Assembly: GCA_965206345.1 (NCBI GenBank)
Contig: OZ242211.1
Span: 2,382,419-2,446,418 of the forward strand
Direction: 5' to 3'
Source of the DNA: Arenicellales bacterium
Lineage (GTDB): Bacteria; Pseudomonadota; Gammaproteobacteria; Arenicellales; JAJDZL01
Length of the DNA stretch: 64,000 bases
Below, piece after piece: positions 20,972-38,015 of the stretch. Position numbers and translations under genes: made by a program. The notes under the pieces were generated by a model, which saw only the letters and a program-made list of their open reading frames with translations, made no database searches and was not told the DNA's origin. Position 1 is the first letter of the stretch, and each line of letters begins with the position of its first letter.

Positions 20972-20973
20972 AC

Positions 20974-22178: not shown

Positions 22179-23222
22179 ATGTTCAAAGTCAAACTGGAAG
22201 AGCGACAGGGTACGCAGGAAATTCTTGTATCCAAAGGGGAGCGGCTTCTATATTGTGGATTGCGCAATGGATTCAATTTGGCACATGACTGTGCGAGTGG
22301 AGTTTGCGGTACCTGTAAAGCGGTTTTGATTTCTGGTGAGGTTTCGTCCTTGTGGTCGGAGGCTCCCGGCAACAAAATTGTCAGAGAAGAACGCAACGAG
22401 TTTCTAATGTGTCAGGCAGTTGCTAAGACCGACGTACATATTAAAGTTCGCCCAGCAGTGCCGTCGCCGGCCCCCAAACCTCAGCCAGGGACCCTAAAGG
22501 GGGTGATCAAGAACCACCGAAGCCTGAATCTGAATGTAGCGGTGTTTGAATACCACTTGTCGCAGCCAGTTCAGTTTCTGGCGGGACAGTTTGCTACAGT
22601 GCAACTGGAGGGAATTCCTGGCTACCGCGCCTATTCAATGACAAATTATTCCGCTGAACCGACTCAGTCTCTTCATTTTGTCGTGAAACATATTCCTGGA
22701 GGAAAGTTGACCGATTGGCTTTTTCAACAGAATCGAGATGGTCATGAATTGATGGGTTTCGGACCAGTTGGGCGGGCAGTTTTCGCTCCGGAAAGTGACG
22801 GTGACTTCATCGTTCTGGCAGGTGGGTCTGGCATTGCTGGAATTATGTCAATTCTCCAGCATGCTTCAGATTGCGGTCACTTCGAAAAGTACCGAGGAGA
22901 TGTCGTATTTGGTCTCAATGGACCGCAGGATGTCTTTTTTTTAGATGAACTCAATTCGCTCGCTGGCAGATACAAAAATCTAAGGGTCATCGTCGCACTG
23001 GTTGAGCCAGATAGAAGTGGTTCTTTAACGAGTGATTATCTCAATTTGGAGTTTTCTGAAGGATATCTGAGCAATGTAGCAAATGAAGTTCTGGGAGATT
23101 TATCCGAGATTACAGTGGCGTTTGTCGCCGGTCCGCCACTCGCTGTTGAAACTTCCCAGAAAATGTTGGTAATGGAACGGAAGGTTTCTGCAAGAAAAAT
23201 GAGGTTTGACCGTTTCGGCTGA
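22179..23222 (+). CDS. 2Fe-2S ferredoxin / FAD / NAD(P)H reductase (monooxygenase reductase type)
   Basis: CASGVCGTC...C cluster, RAYS flavin motif, AGGSGIA NAD motif, VAGPP and terminal FDRFG. Confidence 0.88.
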   Translation: MFKVKLEERQGTQEILVSKGERLLYCGLRNGFNLAHDCASGVCGTCKAVLISGEVSSLWSEAPGNKIVREERNEFLMCQAVAKTDVHIKVRPAVPSPAPKPQPGTLKGVIKNHRSLNLNVAVFEYHLSQPVQFLAGQFATVQLEGIPGYRAYSMTNYSAEPTQSLHFVVKHIPGGKLTDWLFQQNRDGHELMGFGPVGRAVFAPESDGDFIVLAGGSGIAGIMSILQHASDCGHFEKYRGDVVFGLNGPQDVFFLDELNSLAGRYKNLRVIVALVEPDRSGSLTSDYLNLEFSEGYLSNVANEVLGDLSEITVAFVAGPPLAVETSQKMLVMERKVSARKMRFDRFG

Positions 23223-23235
23223 GCACCGGGTTTCT

Positions 23236-23988
23236 TCACGCTAGTTTATCGGTTAGAGTTGGCTGATCCTGACTTTCCAACACCTTGGCAGACTTAGCAA
23301 TTGTCAGTGCATCTTCTGCCAGCAGATCTAAATGTTTTTCCATGCTGAGCTCGGCAATTTCGGGTGTATGGTCTTCAATGGCTTCCAATATCGCTTGATG
23401 TTCCTCATTCGATTCTTCTATTCGATGTGGTCGAAAAGTAACCAGTCGTCGATAAGGTGAAAGACGCTTGTCAATTGAAGCTATCTGTTCAATCAAGGCT
23501 GAGTTCTTTGCTGCAATAAAGATCTGCTCGTGAAAAACCTGATTGGCAGAGTAGTAAATCAAGGGATTAAGGGTTTTTGCTGCCTCAATACACTTTTCGT
23601 GTGCCATTCGAATGAGTGCCAGATCTTCAACTGTTGCTCGAATTGCTGCTTTTTTGGCTGCAAATGATTCTAGTGTCGCAACCAGTTCAAACATTTCCAT
23701 AATTTCGTCAAGCGAGGGTTTGACGACAAAAACACCAGCATTTCGACGCTTCACTACCAGTCGAGCGGCACTCAAGCCTTCAAAAGCTTCACGAATGGGC
23801 GTTCGAGACACTCCGTAGCGCTTAGCCAGGCGGTTCTCATCCAAATGTTCACCAGGACTGAATTCTCCGCGAATAATCGCTGTCTCGATTTCCTGCTGAA
23901 TCAGCTTTGAAGTGGCCAACTGTGCGGATACGCTGGATTTTTTGAGCGTAGGATTTTCCATGGTTGTCGAAGTATCTGTCATTCGCAT
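23236..23988 (-). CDS. GntR (FCD) family transcriptional regulator
   Basis: LAKRYGVSRTPIREA wHTH; NQVFHEQI and EEHQAILEAI in the FCD domain. Confidence 0.92.
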   Translation of the reverse strand: MRMTDTSTTMENPTLKKSSVSAQLATSKLIQQEIETAIIRGEFSPGEHLDENRLAKRYGVSRTPIREAFEGLSAARLVVKRRNAGVFVVKPSLDEIMEMFELVATLESFAAKKAAIRATVEDLALIRMAHEKCIEAAKTLNPLIYYSANQVFHEQIFIAAKNSALIEQIASIDKRLSPYRRLVTFRPHRIEESNEEHQAILEAIEDHTPEIAELSMEKHLDLLAEDALTIAKSAKVLESQDQPTLTDKLA

Positions 23989-24044: not shown

Positions 24045-24389
24045 GGAACACCTCAGTCAGGTGTCCAGGAGTCAATATCGAAGGTAGATCTGGACCTAGT
24101 TGTTGATACAATTGCCTGGTTATTGAATCTCTTTTCGAGTCTCGATGACGTTCAGTCGCGGTACTCAAGGGTACGTTATTAAGCAGTTGCTTCTGATCAG
24201 CGGTTACTTTTGGGACCATTGGAGTTTGACGGATTGTTTATCGCCGCTGACGATGCCGGAACGGGATTTTTTCGAGCGCCGGATGTTGGTTAACTGCTAA
24301 GTGACATGGTTTCAGATTCTGAACCCTTCTTGCGCCACGATCTATACGAACCATACCGGTTTGTAAACCAGCCACGTCCAGAACAGTGA
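24045..24389 (+). pseudogene. Decayed C-terminal fragment of a DAO-family FAD-dependent oxidoreductase
   Basis: One frame with two internal stops reads ...VRY*AVASDQRLLLGPLEFDGLFIAADDAGTGFFRAPDVG*LLSDMV...LYEPYRF. This matches the DAO C-terminal pattern (TPD..P.LG....GL..A....G.GF..AP.VG..L...........P.RF). Confidence 0.6.
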
Positions 24390-24621
24390 TCACCAATTAC
24401 ATCGACGGCAGCGCATATGAGGTGAATGAGGATGCCATCCTCGGTCACGTGTTGCACGAAGTTAAATCTGCAAAATTTGCAGGCAATTAGTACTGGACTC
24501 GACTTGTAATGGAACGCTTTCAAGGACGAATTGGTGGTGTTGCTGTATCAAGATTGCCAGCGAACCAATTTGGCTTGGACCCAAGAATATTCGATTTCAA
24601 TCAGCCGCAATTACCACTTCG

Positions 24622-24739
24622 ACCTGTATCGATAAATGTTGTACACGATACCTTTGCACGAAAGAGCGTGTAGATGATCGCCATGTTTGAAATTTTGTCG
24701 ATGAAGTGTCAAAATTTACCGTTTGGTAAATCTGCTCCC
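24622..24739 (+). repeat. Diverged direct-repeat copy of 36999-37117
   Basis: Manual alignment gave 89/119 identical positions with one gap. Confidence 0.7.
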
Positions 24740-24758
24740 ACTCTTACTTTAGGTCAAT

Positions 24759-24988
24759 TGAATTTGTTACCTGGCCAGTTTCTCAGAAATTGAATCGGGT
24801 GCTGTTGAATCTGAATATTCAACTTCCTGATAAGAGTTTTGACGATACGGTTGAAGCATTGGAGTCGCTCGAAGTTGGCCTTCCACCGAGACCCATAGAA
24901 GGAGCACACGGAGCTTTGGCTGAAATTTCCAGAGAGTTTCCACTTGCTATAGTTTCGGATACCATCAATGCCTCCGGAACGGGTCTTC
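24759..24988 (+). pseudogene. 230-bp internal duplicate of the HAD hydrolase gene (copy of 37481-37710), with no start and no C-terminus
   Basis: Manual alignment gave 221/230 identical positions with no gaps; 8 amino-acid changes relative to the intact gene. Confidence 0.92.
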
Positions 24989-25044
24989 TTCACCGCAATT
25001 TATCTGATGAGTGTCTACACTAGTAGCACTTGGCGGGACTAAAG

Positions 25045-25926
25045 TTACTCACCTGCTGATTCAGGATTTTCGGTTTCAGACAGCGCTTTTTGAAATCTTG
25101 CATCCCGGTAGTATCCCAATGCAATGATCAGTGACTGGGCAAGAACTATAGGTCCAGATAAAGGACGAAATCGATGTACGTTCGCATCACGAACAATAAA
25201 ACAAAGACTCGAATTTCGAGCAAGAGGACTAGTCATTAAATCAGTAATTGCGAGCACAGGAACGTTGCGGATGTATGCGTCGGAGACTGCGTCGACAACA
25301 GGTTGTGCATATTCAGCAAAACTAACGGCGATTAACAGGTCTTGCGAGTTCAAAGTTGCAACCTGTTGATTGAGCATACCACCAACAGAATCTAGCAAGT
25401 GACAACGGTACTCAAGTCTAGCTAGTCCATAAGCAAGATATGCCGCGATCGGAAATGCGCGTCGTTGCCCAATGACATAAATTTCGTCTGTACCGTCCAT
25501 CATACGAATCGCTTCCTGCAACTTGTCTCCATCAATATCATCTTTCAAGTGCTGCAGTGCCAGTATTGATGCATCAGCGAATTCATTAAGGATAGCAGCC
25601 GGGTCAGTCTCAGCTATTTCTTCCATTTTCTGGTGGTGATCGTAAATCTGATCACGAAACGTGGGAACTCCTTCAATTAAACGCAATCGAAAGACGCGTT
25701 GCATTTCGGAGAATCCTGAATATCCAAAGACCTTAGCCAGCCGAATCAACGTGGATGGCTGCACACCTATTTGTTGCGCTATTTCAGCGACAGTATGCAA
25801 CGCAAAGCGATTTGGATCTTCAAGGGAGTATTGCGCAACTTTCTTTAAATGCGGGCTTAATTCCTCAAACTGGTGTTGAATAAGCTCACGCAATCGATCG
25901 AAGTCTAGAGGCGCTGCATTGTCCAT
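25045..25926 (-). CDS. MurR/RpiR family transcriptional regulator (HTH + SIS)
   Basis: GVQPSTLIRLAKVFGYSGFSEMQ HTH and IYVIGQRRAF / IAVSFAEY SIS motifs; divergent from the catabolic operon. Confidence 0.92.
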   Translation of the reverse strand: MDNAAPLDFDRLRELIQHQFEELSPHLKKVAQYSLEDPNRFALHTVAEIAQQIGVQPSTLIRLAKVFGYSGFSEMQRVFRLRLIEGVPTFRDQIYDHHQKMEEIAETDPAAILNEFADASILALQHLKDDIDGDKLQEAIRMMDGTDEIYVIGQRRAFPIAAYLAYGLARLEYRCHLLDSVGGMLNQQVATLNSQDLLIAVSFAEYAQPVVDAVSDAYIRNVPVLAITDLMTSPLARNSSLCFIVRDANVHRFRPLSGPIVLAQSLIIALGYYRDARFQKALSETENPESAGE

Positions 25927-26368
25927 TACAAGGTGCTCATTTTCATTCCATCTGGCTCAGGTTCTGTTCCCACCATTGCCCTGACCAGAGAAGACTTCGA
26001 GATAAATCGAATCAAAAAGTAGTTTGTCAGAAATCGAAATAGCTTCTTAATGTTGGCTCAACTGAACCCCAATCGCTATCAATTCCCATTGATCACTGAC
26101 GCTTTCAAATTGTTAATTGTAGTGCATGTGAAATGGGTTCATTTTCCACAATTTTGCGTTGTCAACTTTTGAAAATTCAATGCTCACAACACTAAGAAAA
26201 TTATCGACACGACACGCCAACGATTCACCAAAGTTTTATTCAGATGCCTCGCAATTTGAACTCAATGCAGATAATTTGATAAAAAAGAATAAATATTCTA
26301 ATATTATGTATAAAATAAATATTCATTTAATTACATCTAAAATAAACAATAATTCTATTAGATAGGGA

Positions 26369-27292
26369 GTGCAGATGACAGCAGTTGGTCTTGCCGGTAT
26401 GGGGCTGATGGGCAGTGGAATAGCAAAGAATATTCTTGCTGGTGGTTATTCATTATTCGTCGTTGGCCACAAAAGAAGGTCTTGTATAGACGATTTGGTT
26501 CAGCGCGGGGCGAAAGAGTTTCAAACTTATCGTGAACTAGCGGAACACAGTAACTTGATCATTCTTTGCGTTACTGGAAGTCCTGAGGTTGAAAGCATTC
26601 TTTATTCAAAGGATGGGCTATTGGAAGGGATTCACAAAGACAAGATTGTTATTGACTGCTCAACGAGCGAACCTAGTTCAAGTGAACGAATCGCGATTTC
26701 GCTGAAAAAATTGGGGGCATCGTTAGTCGATGCTCCTCTCGCGCGCACTCCGGACGATGCACAAGCAGGTCGTCTTAACACTATGGTTGGTGCATCAAAA
26801 GATGATTTTCAGCGCGTTGAACCCGTACTGCAACAATTTTGCGAAAACATTTTCCATATGGGACCGGTAGGTTCAGGCCACAAGACCAAACTAATCTACA
26901 ACTTCATTACCATGGGTTATGCGGCAATTATTTCCGAGGCCTTTTGCGCTTGCGCTGCTACTGGAGTTGATTTGAAGAAATTTTCTGATGTGGTAGCTTC
27001 AGGTGGAGCTAACAGCGGAATATTTCAGTTGATCGCACCGAAAGCAATTGAATCGGGAGATTGTTCCGGACTTAATTTTAGTATGGCCAACGCGGCCAAA
27101 GACCTTCGCTATTACAACCGTATGATGGATACCATTCCTCTTTCAGGTAATTTGGGAAGATTAGTGCATCATGCACTCATTCAAGGTCTTAACCTCGGTT
27201 ACGCTGATGGATTGGTTGGAGATTTGCTGCACGTGCAAGAAAAGCTCAACGGAGTGCAAATCTTGAATCAAAAACCCGAAAACAACGCTTGA
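26369..27292 (+). CDS. NAD(P)-dependent beta-hydroxyacid dehydrogenase (HIBADH/GarR family)
   Basis: GTG start; GMGLMGSGIA Rossmann motif, IDCSTS, VDAPLA and GHKTKLIYN catalytic Lys. Confidence 0.88.
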   Translation: MQMTAVGLAGMGLMGSGIAKNILAGGYSLFVVGHKRRSCIDDLVQRGAKEFQTYRELAEHSNLIILCVTGSPEVESILYSKDGLLEGIHKDKIVIDCSTSEPSSSERIAISLKKLGASLVDAPLARTPDDAQAGRLNTMVGASKDDFQRVEPVLQQFCENIFHMGPVGSGHKTKLIYNFITMGYAAIISEAFCACAATGVDLKKFSDVVASGGANSGIFQLIAPKAIESGDCSGLNFSMANAAKDLRYYNRMMDTIPLSGNLGRLVHHALIQGLNLGYADGLVGDLLHVQEKLNGVQILNQKPENNA

Positions 27293-27364
27293 TCTATAGC
27301 AGCCCTTTCTAGTCTTATTGGACAATTTTTTAGAGCACAACCCAACACTAAAAGGAGAAATTCA

Positions 27365-28684
27365 ATGGTTACTAAATCTGGTAAATCCAACTCAGCTGTA
27401 AATTCGAAACGACGAACTTTATTGAAAGGAGTGGGGGTGGTATCCGCAGGCATTGCGTCCGGATTTATGGGCCCTTGGGCCTATAACCGAGTTTACGCCG
27501 CCGCTTCGGATAAACCAATTCTGATCGGTTTGACTTCTGATGCTTCCGGTCAGTACGCTAACTCCGGTGCGTCAGACCGTCGGGGTATGATGATGGCAAT
27601 AGCCGAATTCAATGCAAAAGGCGGCGTTCTTGGGAGGCGCGTTGAAACCATACATATCGATACAGAAACCACTCCAGCAACTGGCAGCCGCGTGGCTGAA
27701 CGGCTTATCACACGCCATGAATGTGCGTTTTTGATTGGTGCAGTCAGCTCAGGTGTTGCTAATGCAATTTCGCAAGTTGCACAGAAATATGGGACTGTGT
27801 ATCTCAATACCAATTCAAGCTCGCCAACAGAATCTGGCAAGAACTGTCATCGAGTAAAGTTTGTGTGGGACGGCAATGGCACCAACTTCGCTCAAGCCGC
27901 AGTCAAGAATGCGATTGATGCTTATGGCACGAAATGGTTGTTGATGACCAACGATTATGTCTGGGGTCACAACACATCTGCTGCAACCCGCAGCTTAGTG
28001 GAGAAATTTGGAGGAGAAATTTTAGACGAGATTCTCGTACCGCAAGGAACTCGAGATTTTTCATCCATGTTACTCAAGGTGCAACAGGCTTCTCCGCAAG
28101 TTGTTGCCGCTGCAGTTGGTGGCGACGACCAAAAGGCAATGCGTCAGCAAGTCTCTCAATTGGGACTTGGACAAAACATGGCATGGATCAACAACCAGCA
28201 GGATTGGCCCGACGTTTACGGTTTGCCGCTGGAAAACCTGTTTGGTGTGTTCGGTACGACTTGGTACTGGAAATTGGACTTGCCGGGGGTTACAGAATTT
28301 GTAGAACGCTATCAGGCAATGTATCCGGACACTCGTATGCGCGTACCTGGAAACGTGTTCTATAACGGCTATATGGCCACTCGCGAGCTTCTTGGTGCGG
28401 TTGAACGGGCCGGTACTACCAACAACATAAAGGTCATCACGGAACTGGAAAACCTTAAAGTGTCCGCCGAAGACAGAATGCAGCATCATGACGCGTATAT
28501 GAATCCCAACACTCATCAGATGCAACAGACTATCTATTTGGCCACAGCCAACCAAGGTGCTCAAGATTCAGACGATATGTTTTCTGTTCTCAGCCAGTCA
28601 AGTCCCGAAGACATTAGAGATAGTGGAGCGGACATGGAATGTAGCTTGGAATCTCTTGCAGACACGCCTACCTACGAAATGTAG
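27365..28684 (+). CDS. Liv-type (PBP1) ABC substrate-binding protein with Tat signal
   Basis: KRRTLLK twin-arginine motif; EFNAKGGVLGRRVE, GAVSSGVA and NDYVWG motifs. Confidence 0.88.
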   Translation: MVTKSGKSNSAVNSKRRTLLKGVGVVSAGIASGFMGPWAYNRVYAAASDKPILIGLTSDASGQYANSGASDRRGMMMAIAEFNAKGGVLGRRVETIHIDTETTPATGSRVAERLITRHECAFLIGAVSSGVANAISQVAQKYGTVYLNTNSSSPTESGKNCHRVKFVWDGNGTNFAQAAVKNAIDAYGTKWLLMTNDYVWGHNTSAATRSLVEKFGGEILDEILVPQGTRDFSSMLLKVQQASPQVVAAAVGGDDQKAMRQQVSQLGLGQNMAWINNQQDWPDVYGLPLENLFGVFGTTWYWKLDLPGVTEFVERYQAMYPDTRMRVPGNVFYNGYMATRELLGAVERAGTTNNIKVITELENLKVSAEDRMQHHDAYMNPNTHQMQQTIYLATANQGAQDSDDMFSVLSQSSPEDIRDSGADMECSLESLADTPTYEM

Positions 28685-28707
28685 TCTCATCAAATCAGTC
28701 AATCAGT

Positions 28708-28738
28708 CTGCCGCTGCGTTTCTATAGCGTGGCGGCAG
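28708..28738 (+). other. Stem-loop after the binding-protein gene (possible mRNA stabiliser)
   Basis: ctgccgc/gcggcag stem that extends with G-U pairs; located between the SBP and the first permease. Confidence 0.4.
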
Positions 28739-28776
28739 TAAAATTGTCCCGAGCATCGAAACATCTTGAGGTTCGT

Positions 28777-29703
28777 ATGACTGTTTCGCATATCTTTCCT
28801 CATCTTCTGAACGGATTGAGTCTCGGACTGCTTTTTGCCCTGATAGCACTGGGATTCATGCTGATAGTCGGGGTCATGGAACTGATTAATTTAGCGCATG
28901 GCTCATTGTTCGCTCTCGGTGCCTATTTTGCCCTGACTATCATTGATCCGAATTTTTTTTGGGTCACATCTGCTCAAGACGCCTACATCACATTGCCGTT
29001 AATCTATCGCTACGGATTGGCATTGATTCTAGCTCCCTTGTTAGTGGCGGTCGTTGGAATGGGGCTTGAGCTTTGCATGCGGAGAACCTACGGCAAAAAA
29101 GCGGAATACGGACTGCTCCTTACGTTCGGTGCCGCACTTGTCATCGAAGAGACGATTCGACTGACCTGGGGTCCCACCGAACGCTATTTTCAAATACCTG
29201 AATTCATGTCCGGTGCCATACTGTTCGCCGGTCTAATCTATTCAAAGTACAAACTGTATGCGGTGATTTTGTCGATCATCACCATTTTTCTGGTTTGGCT
29301 GTTCTTGGAAAAAACACCCTATGGGGCGATCATCAAAGCCGGTGCTCACGATAGTGAGATGGTTCGGGCGCTGGGAATAAATTTAACCAAGCTCCGATTG
29401 CTTGTGTTTGGCTTTGGAGCTGGATTAGCAGGGTTCGCCGGAATTGTACTGACTCCAATTTGGGGACTGCGACCACATGTTGGCATTGACGCGGTTATCC
29501 CGGCATTCCTAATTATTGTGATTGGCGGTATCGGCAGTTTTTGGGGTGCAGTGTTTGGAGGAATACTGGTGGGTCTTTCCGTTGGCATCACGGGAGCGTA
29601 TGCGTCGGATTGGTCCCTGCTCTCAATGTACTTGCTTTTGATTGCAGTAGTCACAGTTCGTACGAGAGGATTGCTCGGTAAGAAAAGCATACTGGAGAAC
29701 TGA
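28777..29703 (+). CDS. Liv-type ABC permease (LivH family)
   Basis: ATG at 28777 with GAGG RBS; LLNGLSLG, INLAHG and FLIIVIGGIGS. Confidence 0.9.
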   Translation: MTVSHIFPHLLNGLSLGLLFALIALGFMLIVGVMELINLAHGSLFALGAYFALTIIDPNFFWVTSAQDAYITLPLIYRYGLALILAPLLVAVVGMGLELCMRRTYGKKAEYGLLLTFGAALVIEETIRLTWGPTERYFQIPEFMSGAILFAGLIYSKYKLYAVILSIITIFLVWLFLEKTPYGAIIKAGAHDSEMVRALGINLTKLRLLVFGFGAGLAGFAGIVLTPIWGLRPHVGIDAVIPAFLIIVIGGIGSFWGAVFGGILVGLSVGITGAYASDWSLLSMYLLLIAVVTVRTRGLLGKKSILEN

Positions 29704-29706
29704 CGG

Positions 29707-30735
29707 ATGGCTGTGCGCAAAATTCTAGCGAATGACTGGTATACGAAAGAAATGTTACTGCTTTTCGTTATTCTGGTTACACTTCCGCTTTGGATTGAGC
29801 CAATTGGTTTGTACCGTTATCTGGGTGTCGAAATTGTCATTTGGATGATTTATGGACTCGGCTTCAACTTATTGCTTGGTTATTCGGGTTTGCCGAGTTT
29901 TGGGCATGGTGCGTTTTTCGGAACTGGTGCTTATGCCTTTGGGCTGTTTCAGCTGTGGTTTTTTGAAAGTTTGTGGTTGGCAATAATTTTCGCGATTTTC
30001 GCATCGCTTATCGCAGGTGCCATTGTTGCTTGCTTTGTTTCTCATCGCCGAGGAATATATTTTGCGTTAATGACGATCGCATTCGGTCAGATATTCTGGT
30101 TCATTGCCATAAAGTGGCATTCGGTTACTGGTGGTGAAGACGGATTGCTGAATATTCCACGTGCAGCAGCGGATTTCGGCATTTTTTCTTTTGACTTGAA
30201 CTCGAACACAGCGTTGTTCTATTTCGTATTTATTGTCTTTCTCTGCATCGTCTTGCTATTGTGGAGACTAGTCAATTCGAGATTTGGAAAAGTGTTGCAA
30301 GCCATTCGACAGAACGAAGAAAGGGCTCGCTTTATCGGATACAACGTTTGGTTGTTCAAATGGGTGGTGTTTTCGCTGTCCGCTTCGATTGCCGGTTTGG
30401 CTGGGGTCTTGTTTTCAATGGCACAGCAAGGCGCCTACCCTGACGTAATGGCGCTTCATGCTTCTGGCATTATTGTCATGATGACCTTGATTGGTGGTGG
30501 TTTTGTGAGTTTTTGGGGACCTGTGATCGGGGTAACAGTCTATTTTCTGGCACGCGACGTTCTTGGAATTATTACAGAAGCTTGGCTGCTATGGTTTGGG
30601 CTGATTTTTGTTCTTACAGTGCTCTTCAAGCCGGAAGGTATAGCCGGTGCTTGGCAGGAATGGCGTAAATCCAAAACTTTAACAATTTCGAAAAATAAAT
30701 CTCTACTGCAAATTCTATCAATGAGGAAAAGGTGA
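29707..30735 (+). CDS. Liv-type ABC permease (LivM family)
   Basis: GYSGLPSFGHG, GIYFALMTIAF, TGGEDG and AIRQNEERA. Confidence 0.9.
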   Translation: MAVRKILANDWYTKEMLLLFVILVTLPLWIEPIGLYRYLGVEIVIWMIYGLGFNLLLGYSGLPSFGHGAFFGTGAYAFGLFQLWFFESLWLAIIFAIFASLIAGAIVACFVSHRRGIYFALMTIAFGQIFWFIAIKWHSVTGGEDGLLNIPRAAADFGIFSFDLNSNTALFYFVFIVFLCIVLLLWRLVNSRFGKVLQAIRQNEERARFIGYNVWLFKWVVFSLSASIAGLAGVLFSMAQQGAYPDVMALHASGIIVMMTLIGGGFVSFWGPVIGVTVYFLARDVLGIITEAWLLWFGLIFVLTVLFKPEGIAGAWQEWRKSKTLTISKNKSLLQILSMRKR

Positions 30736-31484
30736 ACTTGGTGCCGTTGTTTAAAGCGAGCGACGTTCATAAACGATTCGGAGATCACGTAGTTCTTGAG
30801 AATATCAATCTCCAGTTTGAGCCTGACTGCCTGAGCGGCATCATGGGCCCGAATGGCGCCGGCAAAACAACTTGCTTCAATGTTCTGACTGGAAAATATA
30901 AGCCCGACCGGGGACGGATCGAATTTCAAGGAAAGGACATTACCGGAAATTCACCACACGAAATCGCACGCAAAGGAATCTCTCGATCATTTCAGACCAT
31001 GAATCTATTCAATGAATTTTCGGTATTGGAGAATATTTTGATTGCGTTGAAAGAAGTGCGAATACATGGATTTGATTTCATGCATCTGCTGGCACGGGAA
31101 AGTGAAGTCGCTGATAAAGCGGAGAAAATTCTCTCGCGGGTTGGATTGTCAGGAAAAGAAAACCATCGGACATCCGAATTGGCCTACGGTGACCGTCGCA
31201 GCTTGGAAATAGGCGTCGCTTTGGCTGCTGAACCAAGCTTGCTGTTTCTTGATGAACCTACTTCAGGCTTAGGCGCAAAGGCAACGGTTCGACTGCTTGA
31301 CCTCATGCATCGCCTGAAACAGAATTACACCATTGTTATGATTGAGCATGATATGAAATTTCTTTTCGAACTCGCTGATTCAATTTCGGTAATACATTGG
31401 GGTCAAGTCATTGCACATGGAACCCCTGACACACTTCGCGACAACAAATGGGTTAAGCAATCAATGCTTGGAGACGTGAAGTGA
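30732..31484 (+). CDS. Liv-type ABC ATPase (LivG family)
   Basis: GPNGAGKTT, LAYGDRR signature and LFLDEP. Confidence 0.9.
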   Translation: MNLVPLFKASDVHKRFGDHVVLENINLQFEPDCLSGIMGPNGAGKTTCFNVLTGKYKPDRGRIEFQGKDITGNSPHEIARKGISRSFQTMNLFNEFSVLENILIALKEVRIHGFDFMHLLARESEVADKAEKILSRVGLSGKENHRTSELAYGDRRSLEIGVALAAEPSLLFLDEPTSGLGAKATVRLLDLMHRLKQNYTIVMIEHDMKFLFELADSISVIHWGQVIAHGTPDTLRDNKWVKQSMLGDVK

Positions 31485-32173
31485 TCCTCGAGATTGAAAA
31501 AATTGATACGTTCTATGGCGAGACTCAAGTGTTGTTTGATGTCTCAATGAATGTGGCAGAGGGTGAAGTTGTTGCCTTGCTGGGTCAAAACGGGTCAGGC
31601 AGAACCACTTTGGTACGCTCAATTTTGGGATTGACGCCGCCTCGAACAGGAAAAATCAAATTCGACGGAATCGACATTACTGCCAAATTGATTCATGAAA
31701 TTGCGCGAATGGGAATCGGCTGGGTACCAGATGACCGCCGAATATTTCCAACATTGACGGTGGCTCGCAACTTGTCTATTGCGCGCAAATCAACCAAGTT
31801 TCGATCGTGGACTCATAGCGAAATTTTTGAAATCTTTTCTGCCCTTGAGTATTTGATGGAACGAGAATGCGAAAACCTGTCCGGTGGCGAAATGCAAATG
31901 GTTGCCATTAGTCGAGCGTTGCTCGGTTCGCCTGGATTGGTATTGTTTGACGAGCCGACTCAAGGACTAGCTCCCAAAATTGTCCAGGATGTAATGATGG
32001 TAATTTCTCGCCTTAGAGAAGTCGGTATTTCAGCGTTGATTGTGGAGCAGAACACATCGACAGCACTTGAGGTCTGCGATCGCGGCTATCTACTGAACCG
32101 AGGCAAAATCGTACATCAAGCCTCGGCCTCGGATTTGCTGAGGGACGAGCAAATGTACGCTGACTTATGGTGA
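31481..32173 (+). CDS. Liv-type ABC ATPase (LivF family)
   Basis: GQNGSGRTT, LSGGEMQ, LFDEP and IVEQN. Confidence 0.9.
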   Translation: MILEIEKIDTFYGETQVLFDVSMNVAEGEVVALLGQNGSGRTTLVRSILGLTPPRTGKIKFDGIDITAKLIHEIARMGIGWVPDDRRIFPTLTVARNLSIARKSTKFRSWTHSEIFEIFSALEYLMERECENLSGGEMQMVAISRALLGSPGLVLFDEPTQGLAPKIVQDVMMVISRLREVGISALIVEQNTSTALEVCDRGYLLNRGKIVHQASASDLLRDEQMYADLW

Positions 32174-32818
32174 ATGGACTTCATGACAGAGACAATACTG
32201 GAAGTTCGTAATATTGTGAAGCTCTATCGTCGGGGACTGCTCAACCGAAAGGAGACGTTCCGACTCGAAGCCAACTTCACAATTCCCGAATCAACGGTCA
32301 TTGGTGTAATGGGCCCGAATGGATCTGGAAAAACCACGATTTTTGAATTAATTACCGGTCAGAATCAACCGAGTTCAGGTTCGGTGTTGATATTGGGCAA
32401 GAACATTCATAACGTGAAATACTCGGAGCGGTATCGACTCGCAATGCATTATCACCAATCATACCAGGTACGAAGGTTTCGCAGAACCAAGCCTTCATTT
32501 CTGCTATCGCCTGTTTCACGCAAAGACCCAATAATTCATTTGTTTGATGAGCCGCAATTCAATATTCAAGATGGCTATATTGGGTTCATGCTCGATTTTT
32601 TCCGTAAGTTGAGAACACAAGGTAAGTTAATATTCGTTTGCCTACACCCAAACGAGCCCTATCACATTGAATTGATGCGAGAAATTTGTGAACAATTCCT
32701 GTTTGTTTTGAACGGCAATGTATATCAATTCCCGAGTTTCGACTCAATGCTTCGAATGCATGAATTTAAAGCGTATCTTGGAAAATTGGCTCCAAATAAC
32801 AGCAGAGAAAATGATTAG
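32174..32818 (+). CDS. Atypical short ABC-ATPase-like protein lacking the helical subdomain and signature motif
   Basis: Walker A GPNGSGKTT, Q-loop, Walker B IHLFDEP and H-switch VCLH are present; no LSGGQ. An alternative start is at 32183. Confidence 0.7.
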   Translation: MDFMTETILEVRNIVKLYRRGLLNRKETFRLEANFTIPESTVIGVMGPNGSGKTTIFELITGQNQPSSGSVLILGKNIHNVKYSERYRLAMHYHQSYQVRRFRRTKPSFLLSPVSRKDPIIHLFDEPQFNIQDGYIGFMLDFFRKLRTQGKLIFVCLHPNEPYHIELMREICEQFLFVLNGNVYQFPSFDSMLRMHEFKAYLGKLAPNNSREND

Positions 32819-33551
32819 CACAAAGCGGCTTTCAGTTTTAACCGGTGCTGCGGGCGTGATCGGGTTTGCAGTAGCGCGTAGATTCGTTGCTGACGGCTAT
32901 CGCGTAATCATGATCGACATCAGTCGCGGTCAATTGAGGAGAAATGCATCAGCAATAGGTGAGTGTGCGGTTCCGCTTGTACTCGATATAAGTGATATTG
33001 CAGCTGTTGAGCGCGCATGCAAGCAAATCACTGAACAATACGGAGAAACCGACACGCTGGTAAACAATGCTGGAATTTTATCCAACGCGAAGAGCGATAG
33101 CATCTTACTAGATGACTGGAAGCAAATCATGGCAGTCAATCTGGACGGTGCCTTTTTTCTAACACGTTTTTTGCTTCCTGCAATGCGAAAGCGCGGATGG
33201 GGAAGAATCGTTAATGTTTGCTCGCTCGCGATGAAGACCGGCGGACTGACAGCGGGGACAGCATACTCAACTTCCAAAGGTGCTTTGGGGGCATTGACAT
33301 TTTCTCTCGCGCGCGAGTTGGCGCCTGAAGGTATTACAGTCAATGCTGTGGCTCCTGCCTATGTTCGAACTCCAATGGTCACCGAACAGCTTACTGAAGT
33401 GCAACGTCAAAGCATCGTTGATCAAATCCCTGTCGGTCGGTTCTGCGAGCCTGAGGAAGTTGCTCATCTAATAGCGTTCTTGGCTTCACCACGAGCAGGA
33501 TTTATCACTGGAGAGATCGTCGACATCAACGGTGGTCTGCACATGGACTGA
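32811..33551 (+). CDS. Short-chain dehydrogenase/reductase (FabG-like)
   Basis: ATG at 32811; TGAAGVIG, VNNAG and YSTSK motifs. Confidence 0.9.
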   Translation: MISTKRLSVLTGAAGVIGFAVARRFVADGYRVIMIDISRGQLRRNASAIGECAVPLVLDISDIAAVERACKQITEQYGETDTLVNNAGILSNAKSDSILLDDWKQIMAVNLDGAFFLTRFLLPAMRKRGWGRIVNVCSLAMKTGGLTAGTAYSTSKGALGALTFSLARELAPEGITVNAVAPAYVRTPMVTEQLTEVQRQSIVDQIPVGRFCEPEEVAHLIAFLASPRAGFITGEIVDINGGLHMD

Positions 33552-33565
33552 TACTAGCGAAAAAA

Positions 33566-34372
33566 ATGAATCCACAAAATTCAGAGCATTTTTCCGGGGT
33601 TTCTGAAATCTTTGGTTTAGACGGCAAAATTGCGCTCGTACCGGGAGGATACGGTGGTCTTGGAAGTGCCATCGCATCAGCAGTTGCAGCGGCTGGAGGG
33701 ACTGTAGTCATTGCCGGACGTCAGAAGAAAAAAGCTGAAATTCTTGCGGCGGGTTTAGTCAACAGGAAGTGGAAGGCCGACTGTGTTGTGATGGACGCGA
33801 ACAGCGTAGAATCAATTAATTGTGCTGTTGATGAGGTTGCTGGACGATTTGGAAGAATCGACATTCTGATCAACTGCATTGGAATTCACAAGGAGCAAAC
33901 TCTGCTAGAAGTGACCGAGGATGTATATGACGAAGTCTACCGGACTAACCTGAAAGCGGCAATGTTTTTGGCTCAGGCAACGGCACGTCACCAAGTCGCC
34001 GCTGGTGGAGGAGGACGGCAAATTCATTTGGCTTCTGTTCGTGCGCAACTTGGGATACGGAACCGTGGATATTCTGCGTATTGCAGCAGTAAAGGAGGGT
34101 TGATGATGCTGATCAAGCAACACTCGCTGGAACTAGCATCAGAACAAATCACTGTGAATGGAGTGGCACCTACATTTGTTTACACCGCTATGATAAGAAA
34201 GGTGATGGACAATCCCGAAATCCATGACGAACTGGTCGCAAGAATTCCGCTGGGGAGAATCGCCTCTCCCAGCGATGTGATTGGTCCAGTTCTGTTCTTT
34301 TGTTCGGATGCCTCAGGATTTGTAACCGGTCAAATTTTGTACGTTGATGGAGGAATCACCGCAAGTCAATGA
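33566..34372 (+). CDS. Short-chain dehydrogenase/reductase (gluconate-5-dehydrogenase/KduD-like)
   Basis: PGGYGGLG, YCSSK and GQILYVDGG motifs. Confidence 0.85.
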   Translation: MNPQNSEHFSGVSEIFGLDGKIALVPGGYGGLGSAIASAVAAAGGTVVIAGRQKKKAEILAAGLVNRKWKADCVVMDANSVESINCAVDEVAGRFGRIDILINCIGIHKEQTLLEVTEDVYDEVYRTNLKAAMFLAQATARHQVAAGGGGRQIHLASVRAQLGIRNRGYSAYCSSKGGLMMLIKQHSLELASEQITVNGVAPTFVYTAMIRKVMDNPEIHDELVARIPLGRIASPSDVIGPVLFFCSDASGFVTGQILYVDGGITASQ

Positions 34373-36399
34373 ATAAGACTTTCAATGTCGAAGAAATAGC
34401 GCGTCTTGAACGTGCCAATTCAATACGAGCACTAGCCATGGACGCGGTTCAACTGGCAAACTCTGGCCATCCTGGTATGCCCATGGGAATGGCGGACATT
34501 GCAGAAATATTGTGGCGAGAATTTTTAAAACACGACCCAAAAGATCCAAGCTGGCCAGACCGGGATCGATTTGTACTGTCGAACGGACATGGGTCCATGT
34601 TGATCTATGCATTGTTGCATCTAACCGGTTACGATCTGCCGCTGGATGAAATCAAATCTTTCAGACGACTCGGATCCAAAACCCCCGGGCATCCGGAATT
34701 TGGAATCACGCCAGGTGTAGAGGTCACCACAGGTCCGCTCGCACAAGGCTTTTCCAGCGCTGTGGGAATGGCGCTGGCAGAAAAAACACTTGCAACACAC
34801 TTCAACCGCAATGATTGCACTATTGTGGATCATCATACATACGTGTTTCTTGGCGATGGATGCTTAATGGAAGGACTCTCGCATGAAGCAGCGTCTTTTG
34901 CAGCTTACCATCGACTCGGTAAACTAATCGTAATCTACGATGCAAACAAGATTTCACTTGATGGTGACATAAGCGGATGGTTCTTGGATGACACTCCCGC
35001 TCGATTTCGCGCCTACGGCTGGCATGTGGTAGAAAATGTTGATGGACATGACCCTGAACAGATTAGGTCGGCAATTCGAACCGCGAAATCGCAGGACATA
35101 CGACCTTCTCTAATTTGTTGTAAGACGATTATTGGCTTTGGATCTCCAAACAAACAGGGTACCTCAGGAGTACATGGAGCCCCGCTTGGGGAAGCTGAAG
35201 TTTCTTCTGTTCGAGAATTTCTTAACTGGAACCATCCTCCATTTTTCATCCCCCAGTCGGTCTACGATTCATTCAGCTGTGTATCTAAAGGCGCCGCGGC
35301 ACATGAAAAATGGAACAGGAAGTTTGATTTTTATCGTCAGAGATATCCAGAACTTGCTAGCGAATTCAAACGTCGCATTGAAGGAAATCTACCAGACCAT
35401 TGGCAAACAACTACGGATGAATTCATCCGATCAATTAGTCGTAGCAATATTATTGCAGCAACCAGAGAATCGTCACAGACGGTGCTCGAAGTCTATGGGC
35501 CAAGACTTCCCGAGTTGATCGGTGGGTCAGCTGACCTGACAAACTCAAATTTGGTGTTTTGGGGTGAATCAAAACCACTAACCCGTGAAAATCCTGATGG
35601 AAACTATATTTATTTTGGGGTTCGAGAATTTGGAATGACTAGCATAGTTAATGGTTTGTCATTGCACGGCGGGTTTATTCCTTACGGAGCTACTTTTTTG
35701 GTATTTTCTGAGTACGCACGCAATGCAGTTCGCATGGCAGCAATAATGGGGATACGTTCAATTTTTGTATACACCCATGATTCAATTGGCTTGGGTGAGG
35801 ATGGTCCTACACATCAAGCTATAGAACAAGCAGCGACATTGCGATTGATTCCAAATATGTCGGTTTGGCGTCCATGCGATGCGACTGAGACAGCTGTTGC
35901 GTGGAAAGCAGCGATTGAGCGTAAAACTGGGCCAACATGTTTGTTGCTAACACGTCAAACTGTGCCTGCGAAAGAAATAGAACTTGACTGTCTACCATTG
36001 ATTGAAAAAGGGGGGTACGTAGTTACGGACAGCGATGAAAGCGTGGACGCAATTATCATCGCGACCGGGTCTGAAGTTCAACTGGCAATCAATGCGATGA
36101 AGTCGCTTGCGAAAAAGAAAATTCATTGTCGAGTCGTCTCTTTGCCTTCAGTGGATGTGTTTGAATCCCAAAGCCAAGAGTATCAGAATTCGGTGATTCC
36201 CCCTCATATGAATCGTCGAGTTGTAGTTGAAGCAGGGGTTTCTGCGTTGTGGCATAAGTTTGCAGGTCCGTCAGGAATAACGCTCGGTGTAGACAGATTT
36301 GGTGAATCAGCACCGCCAGAAGACGTTTTCAGGCACTTCAATTTAACCGTAGAAGCTGTCGAAAAGGCTGTAATGGATGTGTGTACTGGTAGTGAGTAA
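34369..36399 (+). CDS. tkt: Transketolase (single-chain)
   Basis: SGHPGMPMG, SNGHGSM, GDGCLMEG TPP motif, YFGVREF and HDSIGLGEDGPTHQ. Confidence 0.96.
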   Translation: MNKTFNVEEIARLERANSIRALAMDAVQLANSGHPGMPMGMADIAEILWREFLKHDPKDPSWPDRDRFVLSNGHGSMLIYALLHLTGYDLPLDEIKSFRRLGSKTPGHPEFGITPGVEVTTGPLAQGFSSAVGMALAEKTLATHFNRNDCTIVDHHTYVFLGDGCLMEGLSHEAASFAAYHRLGKLIVIYDANKISLDGDISGWFLDDTPARFRAYGWHVVENVDGHDPEQIRSAIRTAKSQDIRPSLICCKTIIGFGSPNKQGTSGVHGAPLGEAEVSSVREFLNWNHPPFFIPQSVYDSFSCVSKGAAAHEKWNRKFDFYRQRYPELASEFKRRIEGNLPDHWQTTTDEFIRSISRSNIIAATRESSQTVLEVYGPRLPELIGGSADLTNSNLVFWGESKPLTRENPDGNYIYFGVREFGMTSIVNGLSLHGGFIPYGATFLVFSEYARNAVRMAAIMGIRSIFVYTHDSIGLGEDGPTHQAIEQAATLRLIPNMSVWRPCDATETAVAWKAAIERKTGPTCLLLTRQTVPAKEIELDCLPLIEKGGYVVTDSDESVDAIIIATGSEVQLAINAMKSLAKKKIHCRVVSLPSVDVFESQSQEYQNSVIPPHMNRRVVVEAGVSALWHKFAGPSGITLGVDRFGESAPPEDVFRHFNLTVEAVEKAVMDVCTGSE

Positions 36400-36506
36400 C
36401 GTTTTAGAATGATTGAAATGAAATTCGGGAATTGCAAGGTTTGAATGGCACATCATGTGTTAGTCTAAAGCAAAAAATTTGGCACAGACTCGATTCGTAA
36501 AGGCGA

Positions 36507-36810
36507 TTATGTGTGTGTGAAGACCTCCCAAACAGTAATTGCAGCAAGACCGATTCCGTCTCGAGCAAATTCGTCAAGACAACTGGAAACGCGAGCTTCG
36601 AGGTTCAGGTGCATCATTTCGGAGAGAATATTTGTGTCCAAAAACCAGAACGTAGTTGTTGACATGTTCCTCCTTTGTCGTAATGCGCAACTGGCTTGTG
36701 CCATAGCGTCCAGAATGCCACGATTCAACCCCGTGTTCCGGCCCGAATTATCGTTGAAAGGCTTCTGACGGTTTTGTACGTCGCTCCGAACATTTACGCG
36801 TTTCGTGATC
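36507..36810 (-). pseudogene. Truncated VapC/FitB PIN toxin with an upstream FitA-like antitoxin remnant
   Basis: AGGAGG-ATG at 36665 gives MSTTTFWFLDTNILSEMM...IGLAAITVWEVFTHT* (52 aa, PIN N-terminus only). Upstream, NVRSDV...GRNT...RGILDA resembles a ribbon-helix-helix antitoxin. Confidence 0.7.
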
Positions 36811-36889
36811 TAACGGCGAAAATTTCTTCCATTTAAAGGCTTTGATGCGCTGATAGTTCTCTCGATAATGAAACTTGTGTAGTACCATT

Positions 36890-37130
36890 TGATTCGGTAT
36901 AGAACTGAATTGGGACATGGTCTATGGCCGCTTGAATCAGTTTCATTAGTCACTGACCTTCCCAATTTCGGCGATTGAAACGGAACACGAATTCATCTAC
37001 CTGTACCGGAAAATATCGTACATGATGCCTTTGCGCGAAAACGCGTGTAGACTCTCGTTATTCTTGAAAAATGGCCGAAGAAAATGTCAAAAATTACCGA
37101 TACGTGAACCTGCTCCCGCCATTTCTTCAG
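36890..37130 (-). mobile_element. IS1595-family transposase C-terminal remnant
   Basis: VDEFVFRFNRRNWEGQ*LMKLIQAAIDHVP matches the IS1595 YLDEF.FRFNRR motif; FKNLKKW lies upstream. Internal stop and frameshifts. Confidence 0.65.
36999..37117 (+). repeat. Diverged direct-repeat copy of 24622-24739
   Basis: Manual alignment gave 89/119 identical positions. Confidence 0.7.
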
Positions 37131-37262
37131 GTTCTTGAATTCGAAATTTTGAATTTTCTCTAAAAAAATACAGTTTAATTTCACGTTTACTTAACCGCGA
37201 AACCTTAGGGTTAGCAGCTCGGACAGGGAGGTCTGAGAATTCAAAAGGATGAGGAATTTACA

Positions 37263-38015
37263 TTGAAATCAATTACAGCGATTACTTTTGATTTGTGGGA
37301 CACCGTAATCAACGATGATTCCGATGAACCCATTCGTAAGGAAATGGGGCTTCGAACCAAACGGGAAGAGCGGCATTTTCTGGTTTGGCAGGCGGTAAAC
37401 GAAGTTTCACCTTTGTCGTTGGAAAAGGTGAAATTCGCTTACGAAGACATAAATGCCGAATTCAATCAGGTTTGGCACGATGAATTTGTTACCTGGACAG
37501 TTTCTCAGAGATTGAATCGGGTGCTGTTGAATCTGAATATTCAACTTCCTGATAAGAGTTTTGACGATACGGTTGAAGCATTGGAGTCGCTCGAAGTTGA
37601 CCTTCCACCGAGACCCATAGAAGGAGCACACGAAGCTTTGGCTGAAATTTCCAAAGAGTTTCCACTTGCTGTAGTTTCGGATACCATCAATACCCCTGGA
37701 ACGGGTCTTCGGGCATGGCTTGAAAAACACGACCTTAAGCGGTTTTTTAGAGTTTTTGCCTTTTCAGACGAAGTTGGACGGTCAAAACCACACCGTGACA
37801 TATTTGCCTGCGCACTCGATGGCCTGGGTGCACGTTTTGAAGATGCAGTGCACATTGGAGATCGCGAACACAACGATATTCGAGGCGCGCATGCATTAGG
37901 AATGCGAGCAATACTGTTCACTGCAACGCGTGATGCGGATGCTGAAAATACGACCGCTGACGCAGTTTGCAAGAGTTACGCCGAACTACCGGCCATACTA
38001 AATCAGTTGAACTAA
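37263..38015 (+). CDS. HAD-superfamily hydrolase
   Basis: TTG start with GAGG RBS; FDLWDT motif I, VVSDT motif II, SKPH and HIGDREHND motif IV. Confidence 0.9.
   Translation: MKSITAITFDLWDTVINDDSDEPIRKEMGLRTKREERHFLVWQAVNEVSPLSLEKVKFAYEDINAEFNQVWHDEFVTWTVSQRLNRVLLNLNIQLPDKSFDDTVEALESLEVDLPPRPIEGAHEALAEISKEFPLAVVSDTINTPGTGLRAWLEKHDLKRFFRVFAFSDEVGRSKPHRDIFACALDGLGARFEDAVHIGDREHNDIRGAHALGMRAILFTATRDADAENTTADAVCKSYAELPAILNQLN

Follow-up and report, generated by a model that had tools for sequence, protein, structure and literature searches.

The window analysed here, a 64,000-nt stretch from the genome of an Arenicellales bacterium (GenBank assembly GCA_965206345.1, contig OZ242211.1), carries a catabolic cassette for the uptake and oxidation of a small compound, the last gene of which encodes a transketolase. 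A regulator of the RpiR/MurR family lies at one end (25045-25926, minus strand; HTH_6 PF01418 at 44.8 bits and SIS PF01380 at 58.4 bits) and reaches no NCBIfam equivalog cut-off. Ten co-oriented, abutting genes run divergently from it on the plus strand, beginning after a spacer of 442 bp with a dehydrogenase of the HIBADH (beta-hydroxyacid dehydrogenase) family (26375-27292; PF03446 NAD_binding_2 and PF14833 NAD_binding_11), whose open reading frame (ORF) opens with a GTG at 26369 and whose likely start is the ATG at 26375, preceded by the Shine-Dalgarno sequence AGGGAG. The transport genes follow: a periplasmic binding protein of class B, with a twin-arginine translocation (Tat) signal and a urea/amide/Liv-like fold (27365-28684; Peripla_BP_6, 243 bits), a UrtB/LivH-like permease 1 (28729-29703) and a UrtC/LivM-like permease 2 (29707-30735), both matching BPD_transp_2, and two ATPases of the ATP-binding cassette (ABC) type placed by family scans, one UrtD/LivG-like (30732-31484) and the other UrtE/LivF-like (31481-32173). 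Next comes a short third ATPase of 214 amino acids (aa), identified from its sequence and an alignment of its homologues as an ABC core devoid of the signature motif (32174-32818). Two short-chain dehydrogenases/reductases (SDRs), also recognised by family scans, precede the transketolase: SDR1, which is FabG/acetoacetyl-CoA-reductase-like (32811-33551, with its real start at about 32811, overlapping the third-ATPase stop), and SDR2, which is gluconate-5-dehydrogenase/KduD-like, as its nearest solved proteins also indicate (33566-34372). The transketolase itself (34369-36399) is an accessory second copy that scores 921 bits against TIGR00232, the cut-off being 682; its ATG overlaps the stop codon of SDR2, to which it is translationally coupled.

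This inventory agrees with that of an earlier note made from the letters alone, which had listed the regulator, the HIBADH-family dehydrogenase, the binding protein, the permeases, the ATPases, the SDRs and a full transketolase, its nine co-oriented genes and the transketolase being the ten counted here. The ORF map and the family scans bear out that list and also the remark that a kinase, an aldolase and a dehydratase are missing, as no cassette gene matched any of these families in the scans. No Rfam element was found in the cassette, and the promoter and terminator sites predicted there were no more numerous than in shuffled sequence. The same gene order recurs in dozens of unrelated contigs, and the arrangement is therefore not due to chance.

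The part of the cassette that changes from lineage to lineage is the gene that would split the carbon skeleton. The closest relative outside the genus (locus L114) shares all ten genes from RpiR to SDR2 at 72-87% identity and carries after SDR2, exactly at the position of the window's transketolase, an IolC-DUF2090 fusion (NF047869, 724 bits against a cut-off of 600). This fusion is present in 17 loci, either at the equivalent 3' position or beside RpiR, and its DUF2090 part has been proposed as a 2-deoxy-5-keto-gluconate-6-phosphate aldolase (PMC9007349). A third solution is a very divergent TAL_FSA transaldolase (103 bits against a cut-off of 367), which follows SDR2 in L157 and L167, and which in L182 follows an aldehyde-dehydrogenase-like gene placed after the short ATPase; no kinase was found near the transaldolase in these three loci. 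At least eight loci of the split arrangement described below (class 2) contain, after the short ATPase, a CoA-acylating malonate/methylmalonate-semialdehyde dehydrogenase of the MmsA/IolA type, one copy of which (L191) scores 658 bits against TIGR01722, the others being assigned by clustering or tblastn. The cassette transketolase occurs only in the window's own clade (the window, L098-L100 and L116). The carbon-carbon splitting module is interchangeable between lineages.

The same exchange is seen inside the genus. Among 31 genomes, a second transketolase is present only in four (G000, G003, G015 and G022), always after SDR2, and a whole-genome search with NF047869 returned zero copies of IolC-DUF2090 in these four. 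The search returned one copy each in G023 and G024, located at the cassette, and both genomes have a single transketolase. No remnant of the fusion was found in the window or in its genome. In the six cassette-bearing genomes of the genus, the cassette has either a kinase/aldolase or a transketolase and in no case both; this mutual exclusivity is the strongest evidence that the transketolase replaces the exit step rather than being a passenger. IolD (TIGR04377) gave no match above its cut-off in 25 genomes of the genus, from which it follows that the IolC-DUF2090 at the cassettes of G023 and G024 does not serve inositol catabolism. A reading of the cassette as part of myo-inositol catabolism was rejected on the same ground.

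The window's genome carries two full transketolases. The other copy (C1:1939962, 65% identical to the cassette copy) lies in a metallophosphoesterase-tkt-gap-pgk cluster, a context that identifies it as the housekeeping enzyme, and all of the 24 other genus genomes compared have one housekeeping transketolase, 62-67% identical to the cassette enzyme. In a collection of 5.8 billion proteins, the cassette enzyme forms nine clusters at 87-100% identity, after which the next match, P0133, falls to 71% and the mass of sequences to 67% or less. P0133 is itself a housekeeping transketolase in a tkt-gap-pgk cluster on a TARA contig, and in a tree of 117 sequences it is the sister of the cassette clade, which has a stem of 0.31 changes per site and stands apart from the host's own transketolase. 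The tree and the clusters indicate that the cassette gene was recruited from a transketolase of the housekeeping type. A housekeeping copy elsewhere in the genome was among the checks proposed in the earlier note, which had named a sole transketolase and an unconserved association with the cassette as findings that would speak against it; the first was not observed and the second was, because the gene is limited to one clade, to 4 of the 31 genomes and to the nine protein clusters, and it is not a conserved element of the cassette design. The kinase-free route suggested in the same note is plausible in this clade, whose genomes contain no pathway kinase/aldolase anywhere, and the transaldolase loci show that other lineages also have a kinase-free variant. 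The usual partner of the cassette elsewhere is IolC-DUF2090, however, and the term kinase-free is therefore not applicable to the whole family.

At the level of residues, the cassette transketolase keeps H34, H74, H108, R366, S393, H469, D477, H481 and R528, and the phosphate-binding Arg358, Ser385, His461 and Arg520 (E. coli numbering) and the catalytic His and Asp are all conserved. Nine substitutions specific to the clade occur at columns that are at least 93% conserved elsewhere, such as T to V three residues past the phosphate-binding Ser, and a search for active-site adaptation found none of the nine at a known ligand residue. Comparison with the G003 and G022 copies gave a ratio of nonsynonymous to synonymous substitution rates (dN/dS) of 0.09-0.12 for the transketolase, with dS the same as that of the neighbouring cassette genes; every scorable cassette gene, the transketolase included, has a dN/dS of 0.03-0.14 at a dS of about 0.5-0.75. 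The low dN/dS and the matching dS argue that the transketolase has been inherited together with the cassette, under purifying selection.

The distribution of the core cassette was followed through its short ATPase, which is matched at least 567 times in metagenomes and has 5022 homologues with a length of 204-220 aa. A metagenome scan with the short-ATPase alignment, trimmed of its Walker A motif, returned 80 loci, and the neighbouring genes were read in some 50 loci of at least 5 kb. Five architectures can be distinguished. In class 1, the genes for the HIBADH-family enzyme, binding protein, permeases 1 and 2, ATPases 1 and 2, short ATPase, SDR1 and SDR2 run in this order divergently from RpiR, and the order from RpiR to SDR2 is the same in L015-L018, L103, L114 and dozens of metagenome loci. 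Class 2 is split, with SDR2, SDR1, permease 1, binding protein, HIBADH-family enzyme, IolC and RpiR opposite to permease 2, ATPases 1 and 2 and the short ATPase, often followed by an aldehyde dehydrogenase. Class 3 has an aldo-keto reductase, best matched by YdjG, and an XRE-cupin regulator in place of the HIBADH-family enzyme and RpiR. Class 4 consists of RpiR and the transporter alone, and the downstream genes of its loci are unrelated. In class 5 (L115 and L118), an acetolactate-synthase-like enzyme dependent on thiamine pyrophosphate (TPP) takes the place of both SDRs; the L115 enzyme (10702-12396) scores 350 bits against PRK06112 and is neither IolD nor Xsc.

The core cassette is abundant in metagenomes of marine and soil origin as well as in Alpha-, Beta- and Gammaproteobacteria. 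When 400 evenly sampled genomes of the phylum were scanned with the binding protein, only 2 matched, which means that the cassette is patchy at the species level despite its abundance in metagenomes. The literature searched yielded no description of the cassette, its ligand or its third ATPase. The core cassette is widespread, highly conserved and uncharacterised.

The binding protein is the most conserved component, being 61-88% identical across all cassette classes, with a mean column identity of 71%, and this conservation argues for a single ligand. Its Tat signal (SKRRTLLKGVG) is kept, as a twin-arginine signal, in almost all orthologues. In the alignment of 33 orthologues with the window protein, a near-invariant GPWxxNRVYA segment comes after the Tat signal, and a KNCHR motif and numerous invariant Asn, Gln, His, Trp and Tyr residues are seen in the mature part. 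That a Liv-type binding protein is exported by Tat and has conserved patches rich in His and Cys might mean that it binds a metal or a cofactor. Its AlphaFold2 model has a pLDDT of 82, and the nearest folds are 3i09, the urea-binding 8tg1 and AmiC, at 25% identity or less; the model resembles class-B proteins that are uncharacterised or that bind urea, amides or aromatic acids, and it points to no particular ligand.

The binding protein, permeases and ATPases share folds and Pfam families with the UrtABCDE and LivJHMGF importers (HAAT family). Their scores all fall far below the equivalog cut-offs of both systems, namely 106 bits against 493 for UrtA, 168 against 250 for UrtB, 145 against 296 for UrtC, 210 against 304 for UrtD and 210 against 286 for UrtE, and, on the Liv side, 58 against 477 for LivJ, 86 against 379 for LivH, 102 against 366 for LivM, 208 against 362 for LivG and 175 against 441 for LivF. 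An importer of urea or branched-chain amino acids was rejected on account of these scores and of the genomic context. Unlike Urt and Liv, the cassette includes a third ATPase lacking the signature, and its context is a catabolism of the sugar-acid type under RpiR.

This third ATPase has a Walker A motif (GPNGSGKT), a Walker B motif (LFDEP) and an H-loop (CLHP); it contains no LSGGQ signature motif, and its helical subdomain is much reduced. Pfam and PDB profile matches cover residues ~1-90 alone, and the mean column identity of the homologue alignment is 69%. The AlphaFold2 model (pLDDT 84) predicts a fold like an ABC nucleotide-binding core, with Foldseek TM scores of 0.6-0.69 to many ABC nucleotide-binding domains, and the gene has a dN/dS of 0.09-0.14. 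The third ATPase is the hallmark gene of the cassette. Since no cassette class lacks it, not even the transporter-only class 4, its link is probably to transport and not to catabolism.

The dehydrogenase of the HIBADH family differs from its relatives in two motifs: it has DAPLARTP, in the cassette group DAPLA(R/L)TP, where the family has the canonical DAPVSGG, and KLIYNF where the family has KLxNQ/N, the K of KLIYN aligning with the catalytic Lys of GarR and YihU. It stays below every equivalog cut-off, with 151 bits against 397 for GarR, 137 against 348 for YihU and 118 against 350 for LtnD. Of the solved relatives, the sulfolactaldehyde reductase YihU (DVPVGRTS) alone was seen to have an xRT motif, GarR and the others having SGG. 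When the sulfonate pocket of YihU (Asn174, Ser178 and the backbone of Arg123) is compared with the cassette orthologues, the Arg is kept in most of them, Asn174 is replaced by Tyr in types A and B, and Ser178 corresponds to Thr in type A and to Ala in the other cassette types. For SDR2, the nearest solved proteins are the gluconate 5-dehydrogenases 5u9p, 1vl8 and 6le3, and sub-threshold matches were obtained to the Ga5DH and KduD models. SDR1 resembles FabG and acetoacetyl-CoA reductases and may act on another carbinol, for example in an epimerisation.

The regulator is 72-78% identical to those of the type-A cassettes L114, L115, L117 and L015. A candidate RpiR operator, AATAAATATTCATT, lies at 26314-26327 and matches 13 of the 14 bases of the palindrome AATGAATATTCATT; it is the sole match of this type in the 64-kb window, where 0.07 would be expected. 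Ahead of the dehydrogenase gene, the palindrome is found again in L098, L099, L100, L117 and L015, and its occurrences include type-A cassettes from distant hosts.

The route that we propose from these data would be controlled by RpiR as a divergent repressor of the operon. The Tat-exported class-B binding protein, the Urt/Liv-type ABC transporter and the accessory third ATPase would import a small polyhydroxy compound, probably an acid of the aldonic or uronic type, which SDR2 and SDR1 would convert to a 2-ketose-type acid with a HOCH2-CO-CHOH- head, that is, a 5-keto- or 2-deoxy-5-keto-aldonate. A lineage-specific carbon-carbon splitting module would then cleave this acid, and the HIBADH-family enzyme would process the acid-aldehyde fragment. 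Here the transketolase would most likely stand in for the missing kinase/aldolase and lead from the route into the pentose-phosphate pathway. We favour this overall model, an acquired operon of the sugar-acid type in which a transketolase has replaced the kinase/aldolase exit, with moderate confidence; the modularity and the mutual exclusivity are directly observed among the loci, and the chemistry and the substrate are our inference.

The chemical argument starts from the exit enzymes. IolC-type kinases, transaldolase and transketolase all require a HOCH2-CO-CHOH- head, which enzymes of the gluconate 5-dehydrogenase/KduD type create on an aldonate. The pair IolC-DUF2090 and MmsA is the canonical one for the conversion of 2-deoxy-5-keto-gluconate to dihydroxyacetone phosphate (DHAP) and malonate semialdehyde, and then to acetyl-CoA, and its linkage to the cassette points to a 2-deoxy-5-keto-gluconate-like intermediate that would yield these two products. 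Every cassette variant pairs its cleavage enzyme with an aldehyde-handling enzyme (HIBADH-family, aldo-keto reductase or MmsA/aldehyde dehydrogenase), and this pairing fits a split into a triose, hexose or pentose phosphate and an acid-aldehyde. On stereochemical reasoning, 2-deoxy-5-keto-D-gluconate and 5-keto-D-gluconate would have the D-threo configuration that is required of transketolase and transaldolase donors. The recurrent CoA-acylating dehydrogenase of the MmsA type points to a carboxylate, and together with the gluconate-5-dehydrogenase-like SDR2 and the lack of sulfonate genes it makes a carboxylate intermediate, a 5-keto(deoxy)aldonate, more likely than a sulfosugar or apiose. A more specific version of this chemistry, in which the cassette transketolase directly cleaves the unphosphorylated 5-keto- or 2-deoxy-5-keto-aldonate and transfers its C2 ketol to glyceraldehyde-3-phosphate, giving xylulose-5-phosphate and a C4 acid-aldehyde, is offered as a tentative possibility that we regard with some doubt.

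Several observations weigh against the proposed route. The transketolase is fully canonical, and its sequence bears no sign of having adapted to a carboxylate donor that lacks a phosphate; an increase in pentose-phosphate capacity could be all that it brings. In the cassette copy of the closest relative, G015 (L098, G015:C2), a DDE transposase of 496 aa (DDE_Tnp_1_4, 6179-7669) interrupts the gene near codon 86 and leaves fragments at 4388-6157 and 7888-8178, with the remaining cassette genes intact, and the transketolase may therefore be dispensable. The cassettes of L015, L018 and L161 show no exit gene nearby, and the type-A loci L115 and L118, with a TPP enzyme instead of the SDRs, are unexplained by a simple model of ketose cleavage. 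No close relative of the binding protein has been characterised, and the proteins nearest to it in fold have urea, amides or aromatic acids as ligands, not sugar acids. Finally, the placing of the HIBADH-family enzyme at the last rather than the first step is a guess.

Some of these points would be accounted for if an extra, ordinary transketolase had ridden into the operon, as a boost to the pentose-phosphate pathway or as a passenger, while cleavage was left to unlinked enzymes or the oxidation product was excreted or otherwise used. The canonical score and intact phosphate-binding site, the housekeeping nature of the nearest relative P0133, the inactivation by an insertion sequence in G015 and the several cassettes elsewhere that have no linked exit gene would all be expected of such a gene. 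However, a passenger would not be expected to occupy the exact IolC-DUF2090 position of the closest relative L114, to be coupled in translation to SDR2, or to exclude IolC-DUF2090 so strictly in the six cassette-bearing genomes, nor does it explain the purifying selection and the long stem of 0.31 after recruitment, or the existence of a parallel transaldolase variant. We consider this alternative rather unlikely, and the replacement of the exit step remains the preferred reading.

A sulfonated substrate, either a sugar or a C3-C6 sulfonate, would offer a different explanation for the interchangeable exits. Sulfoglycolysis comes in variants known as sulfo-EMP (YihV/YihT/YihU), sulfo-TAL (with a sulfofructose transaldolase) and sulfo-TK (SqwGH) (PMC8006165, PMC12890257, PMC9594981), and the cassette exits would correspond to these three, acting on sulfofructose or an analogue, with a HIBADH-family enzyme like the sulfolactaldehyde reductase and an RpiR SIS domain that senses the sulfonate as a phosphate mimic. 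The same three exit chemistries and a HIBADH-family reductase define the known pathways (PMC12890257, PMC8006165), and both YihU and the cassette dehydrogenase have the xRT motif and not SGG. The logic is also alike in that an anionic ketohexose is split by kinase and aldolase, transaldolase or transketolase, and the acid-aldehyde then goes to a HIBADH-family reductase or an aldehyde dehydrogenase. Genes specific to sulfosugars, however, are absent. Neither the window's cassette nor the recurrent neighbours in the approximately 50 loci include a sulfoquinovose isomerase, sulfoquinovosidase, mutarotase, sulfonate/sulfite exporter or desulfonating enzyme, and the partner enzymes point to a carboxylate: the recurrent MmsA/IolA type, which is CoA-acylating and decarboxylating, fits malonate semialdehyde and not sulfolactaldehyde, and the kinase/aldolase scores as the IolC-IolJ type. 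Within the dehydrogenase, the pocket Arg of YihU is mostly kept but Asn174 and Ser178 are not consistently conserved, and the YihU family score is far below its cut-off. The transketolase is single, full-length and canonical, unlike the split SqwGH, and the ketose appears to be made by two SDRs instead of the isomerase of sulfoglycolysis. A sulfonate is thus an improbable substrate. The earlier note had proposed a branched, sulfonated or acidic carbohydrate taken up and oxidised under RpiR control; the uptake and oxidation are supported, and so is the acidic option, as a carboxylate, on the evidence of the MmsA-type dehydrogenase, whereas nothing speaks for the sulfonated and branched options (sulfosugar and apiose), since the approximately 50 loci read contain neither an isomerase nor a sulfoquinovosidase, and neither a sulfonate exporter nor a desulfonating enzyme.

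A pathway for a tetritol or tetrulose (erythritol, threitol, erythrulose) or another neutral polyol, in which transketolase or transaldolase assimilates erythrose-4-phosphate or uses erythrulose as ketol donor, is very improbable: the type-A locus L104 does have Dak1/Dak2 and a D-erythrulose-4-phosphate-isomerase-like gene beside the dehydrogenase, both SDRs match the GolD/DthD dehydrogenase family below threshold and the fold group of the binding protein binds small neutral ligands (urea, amides), but this Dak/DerI context is limited to that one locus, which a group II intron has rearranged, the window's genome has no homologue of Dak2 or of the DerI-like protein (Dak1, cut off at the end of the L104 locus, was not searched), and tetritol catabolism makes no use of the dominant partners IolC-DUF2090 and MmsA. 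In L104 itself, the reverse transcriptase of the group II intron (RVT_1, 3962-5155) lies between the dehydrogenase and a shortened binding-protein gene, and the Dak1/Dak2 and isomerase-like genes are found at the usual place of RpiR.

To return to the proposed sugar-acid route, its closest parallels are to be sought among known catabolic systems. The E. coli ydj cluster, studied in the Raushel laboratory, reportedly acts on keto-uronic acids with a PfkB kinase (YdjH), an aldolase (YdjI), an aldo-keto reductase (YdjG) and the dehydrogenases YdjJ and YdjL; the dehydrogenases are said to yield a 2-keto sugar acid, from which phosphorylation at C1 and subsequent cleavage give DHAP and an acid-aldehyde, with the reductase acting alongside. 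The aldolase and transporter families of the cassette differ from those of ydj, and we know of no ydj variant with a transketolase or transaldolase. Accessory transketolases in specialised operons are known in cbbT, from Calvin-cycle operons, and in tktB. Like these, the cassette gene is a second canonical copy in a dedicated operon; unlike them, it stands in for a kinase/aldolase within an operon of import and catabolism, and its partners have no link to CO2 fixation. The lower myo-inositol pathway, with IolC, the DUF2090 protein proposed as 2-deoxy-5-keto-gluconate-6-phosphate aldolase and IolA/MmsA (PMC9007349), is also a close parallel, as the cassette is linked to IolC-DUF2090 in most lineages and also to TIGR01722 MmsA/IolA in the split loci. 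It differs in that the window's clade has no IolC-DUF2090, the genus no IolD, and the cassette no IolG-, IolE- or IolB-type genes, and entry is by a Liv/Urt-type ABC system and three dehydrogenases instead of inositol ring cleavage.

The conservation of the binding protein suggests that one common environmental compound is consumed by bacteria through genes that are not annotated for it, the cassette genes being currently labelled "branched-chain amino acid ABC transporter". That a single operon position is filled by a kinase-aldolase, a transaldolase or a transketolase amounts to a natural experiment on the modularity of pathways, for which the six cassette-bearing genomes of a single genus, four of the transketolase type and two of the IolC type, provide a ready comparative system. 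If the cassette transketolase does cleave the unphosphorylated keto-aldonate directly, the cassette would be a carboxylate, non-sulfur counterpart of sulfoglycolysis, with three interchangeable exits, of which the transaldolase and transketolase ones would need no ATP-dependent phosphorylation of the substrate. Group transfer on an unphosphorylated keto-acid, if true, would widen the known substrate range of canonical transketolase.

The history of the locus can be read from genomes that lack the cassette. In the sister genomes G441 and G013, the gene of a 464-aa flavin adenine dinucleotide (FAD) oxidoreductase directly abuts a HAD hydrolase gene and represents the empty site, and between these two genes the window and G015 have an insert of about 12 kb (24989-36995). 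A target of ~720 bp, made up of the final stretch of the oxidoreductase gene, the spacer and the 5' portion of the HAD gene, has been duplicated and lies on both sides of the insert. The right copy (36996-37710, plus strand; repeat D1) is intact and 89% collinear with the empty site in L197, and the intact HAD gene lies at 37263-38015. The left copy is degraded: the oxidoreductase remnant and its downstream spacer occupy 24387-24764, as located by blastn and tblastn against the empty sites of G441 and G013 (L197 and L199), with 73-78% identity over 24470-24764 and 343 bp lost internally. A direct repeat of 230 nt follows (24759-24988, plus strand), a HAD gene fragment (residues ~74-149) that is 96% identical to 37481-37710 and that is also present beside RpiR in G015. 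The oxidoreductase (Pyr_redox_2, SO_alpha_A3 and BFD-like 2Fe-2S domains) is intact in G015, G441 and G013, and in the window's genome most of its gene was deleted after the cassette had inserted. The flanking duplication can be explained, we infer, if donor DNA with its own copy of the target integrated by a single crossover.

G003 and G022 contain the same 11.5-kb block (window positions 25042-36508) at 85-86% nucleotide identity in an unrelated genomic context, with sharp edges at the RpiR stop and ~110 bp past the transketolase stop. This block is a horizontally acquired operon unit. The inserted DNA ends in a non-coding tail of ~600 bp (36400-36995), of which the first ~110 bp alone are common to the G003 and G022 copies; an ORF within it (36511-36768) matched no protein family, and the tail gave no Rfam match. 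Downstream, the HAD, amidotransferase and aminotransferase genes are conserved backbone and lie outside the cassette. Directly to the left of the insertion, the window has a module with a desaturase-fold oxygenase, a PanB-like protein, a BenC-type reductase and a GntR regulator (19982-23988). In G444, the BenC-type reductase gene directly adjoins the HAD gene, indicating that the whole neighbourhood to the left of the insertion is variable within the genus.

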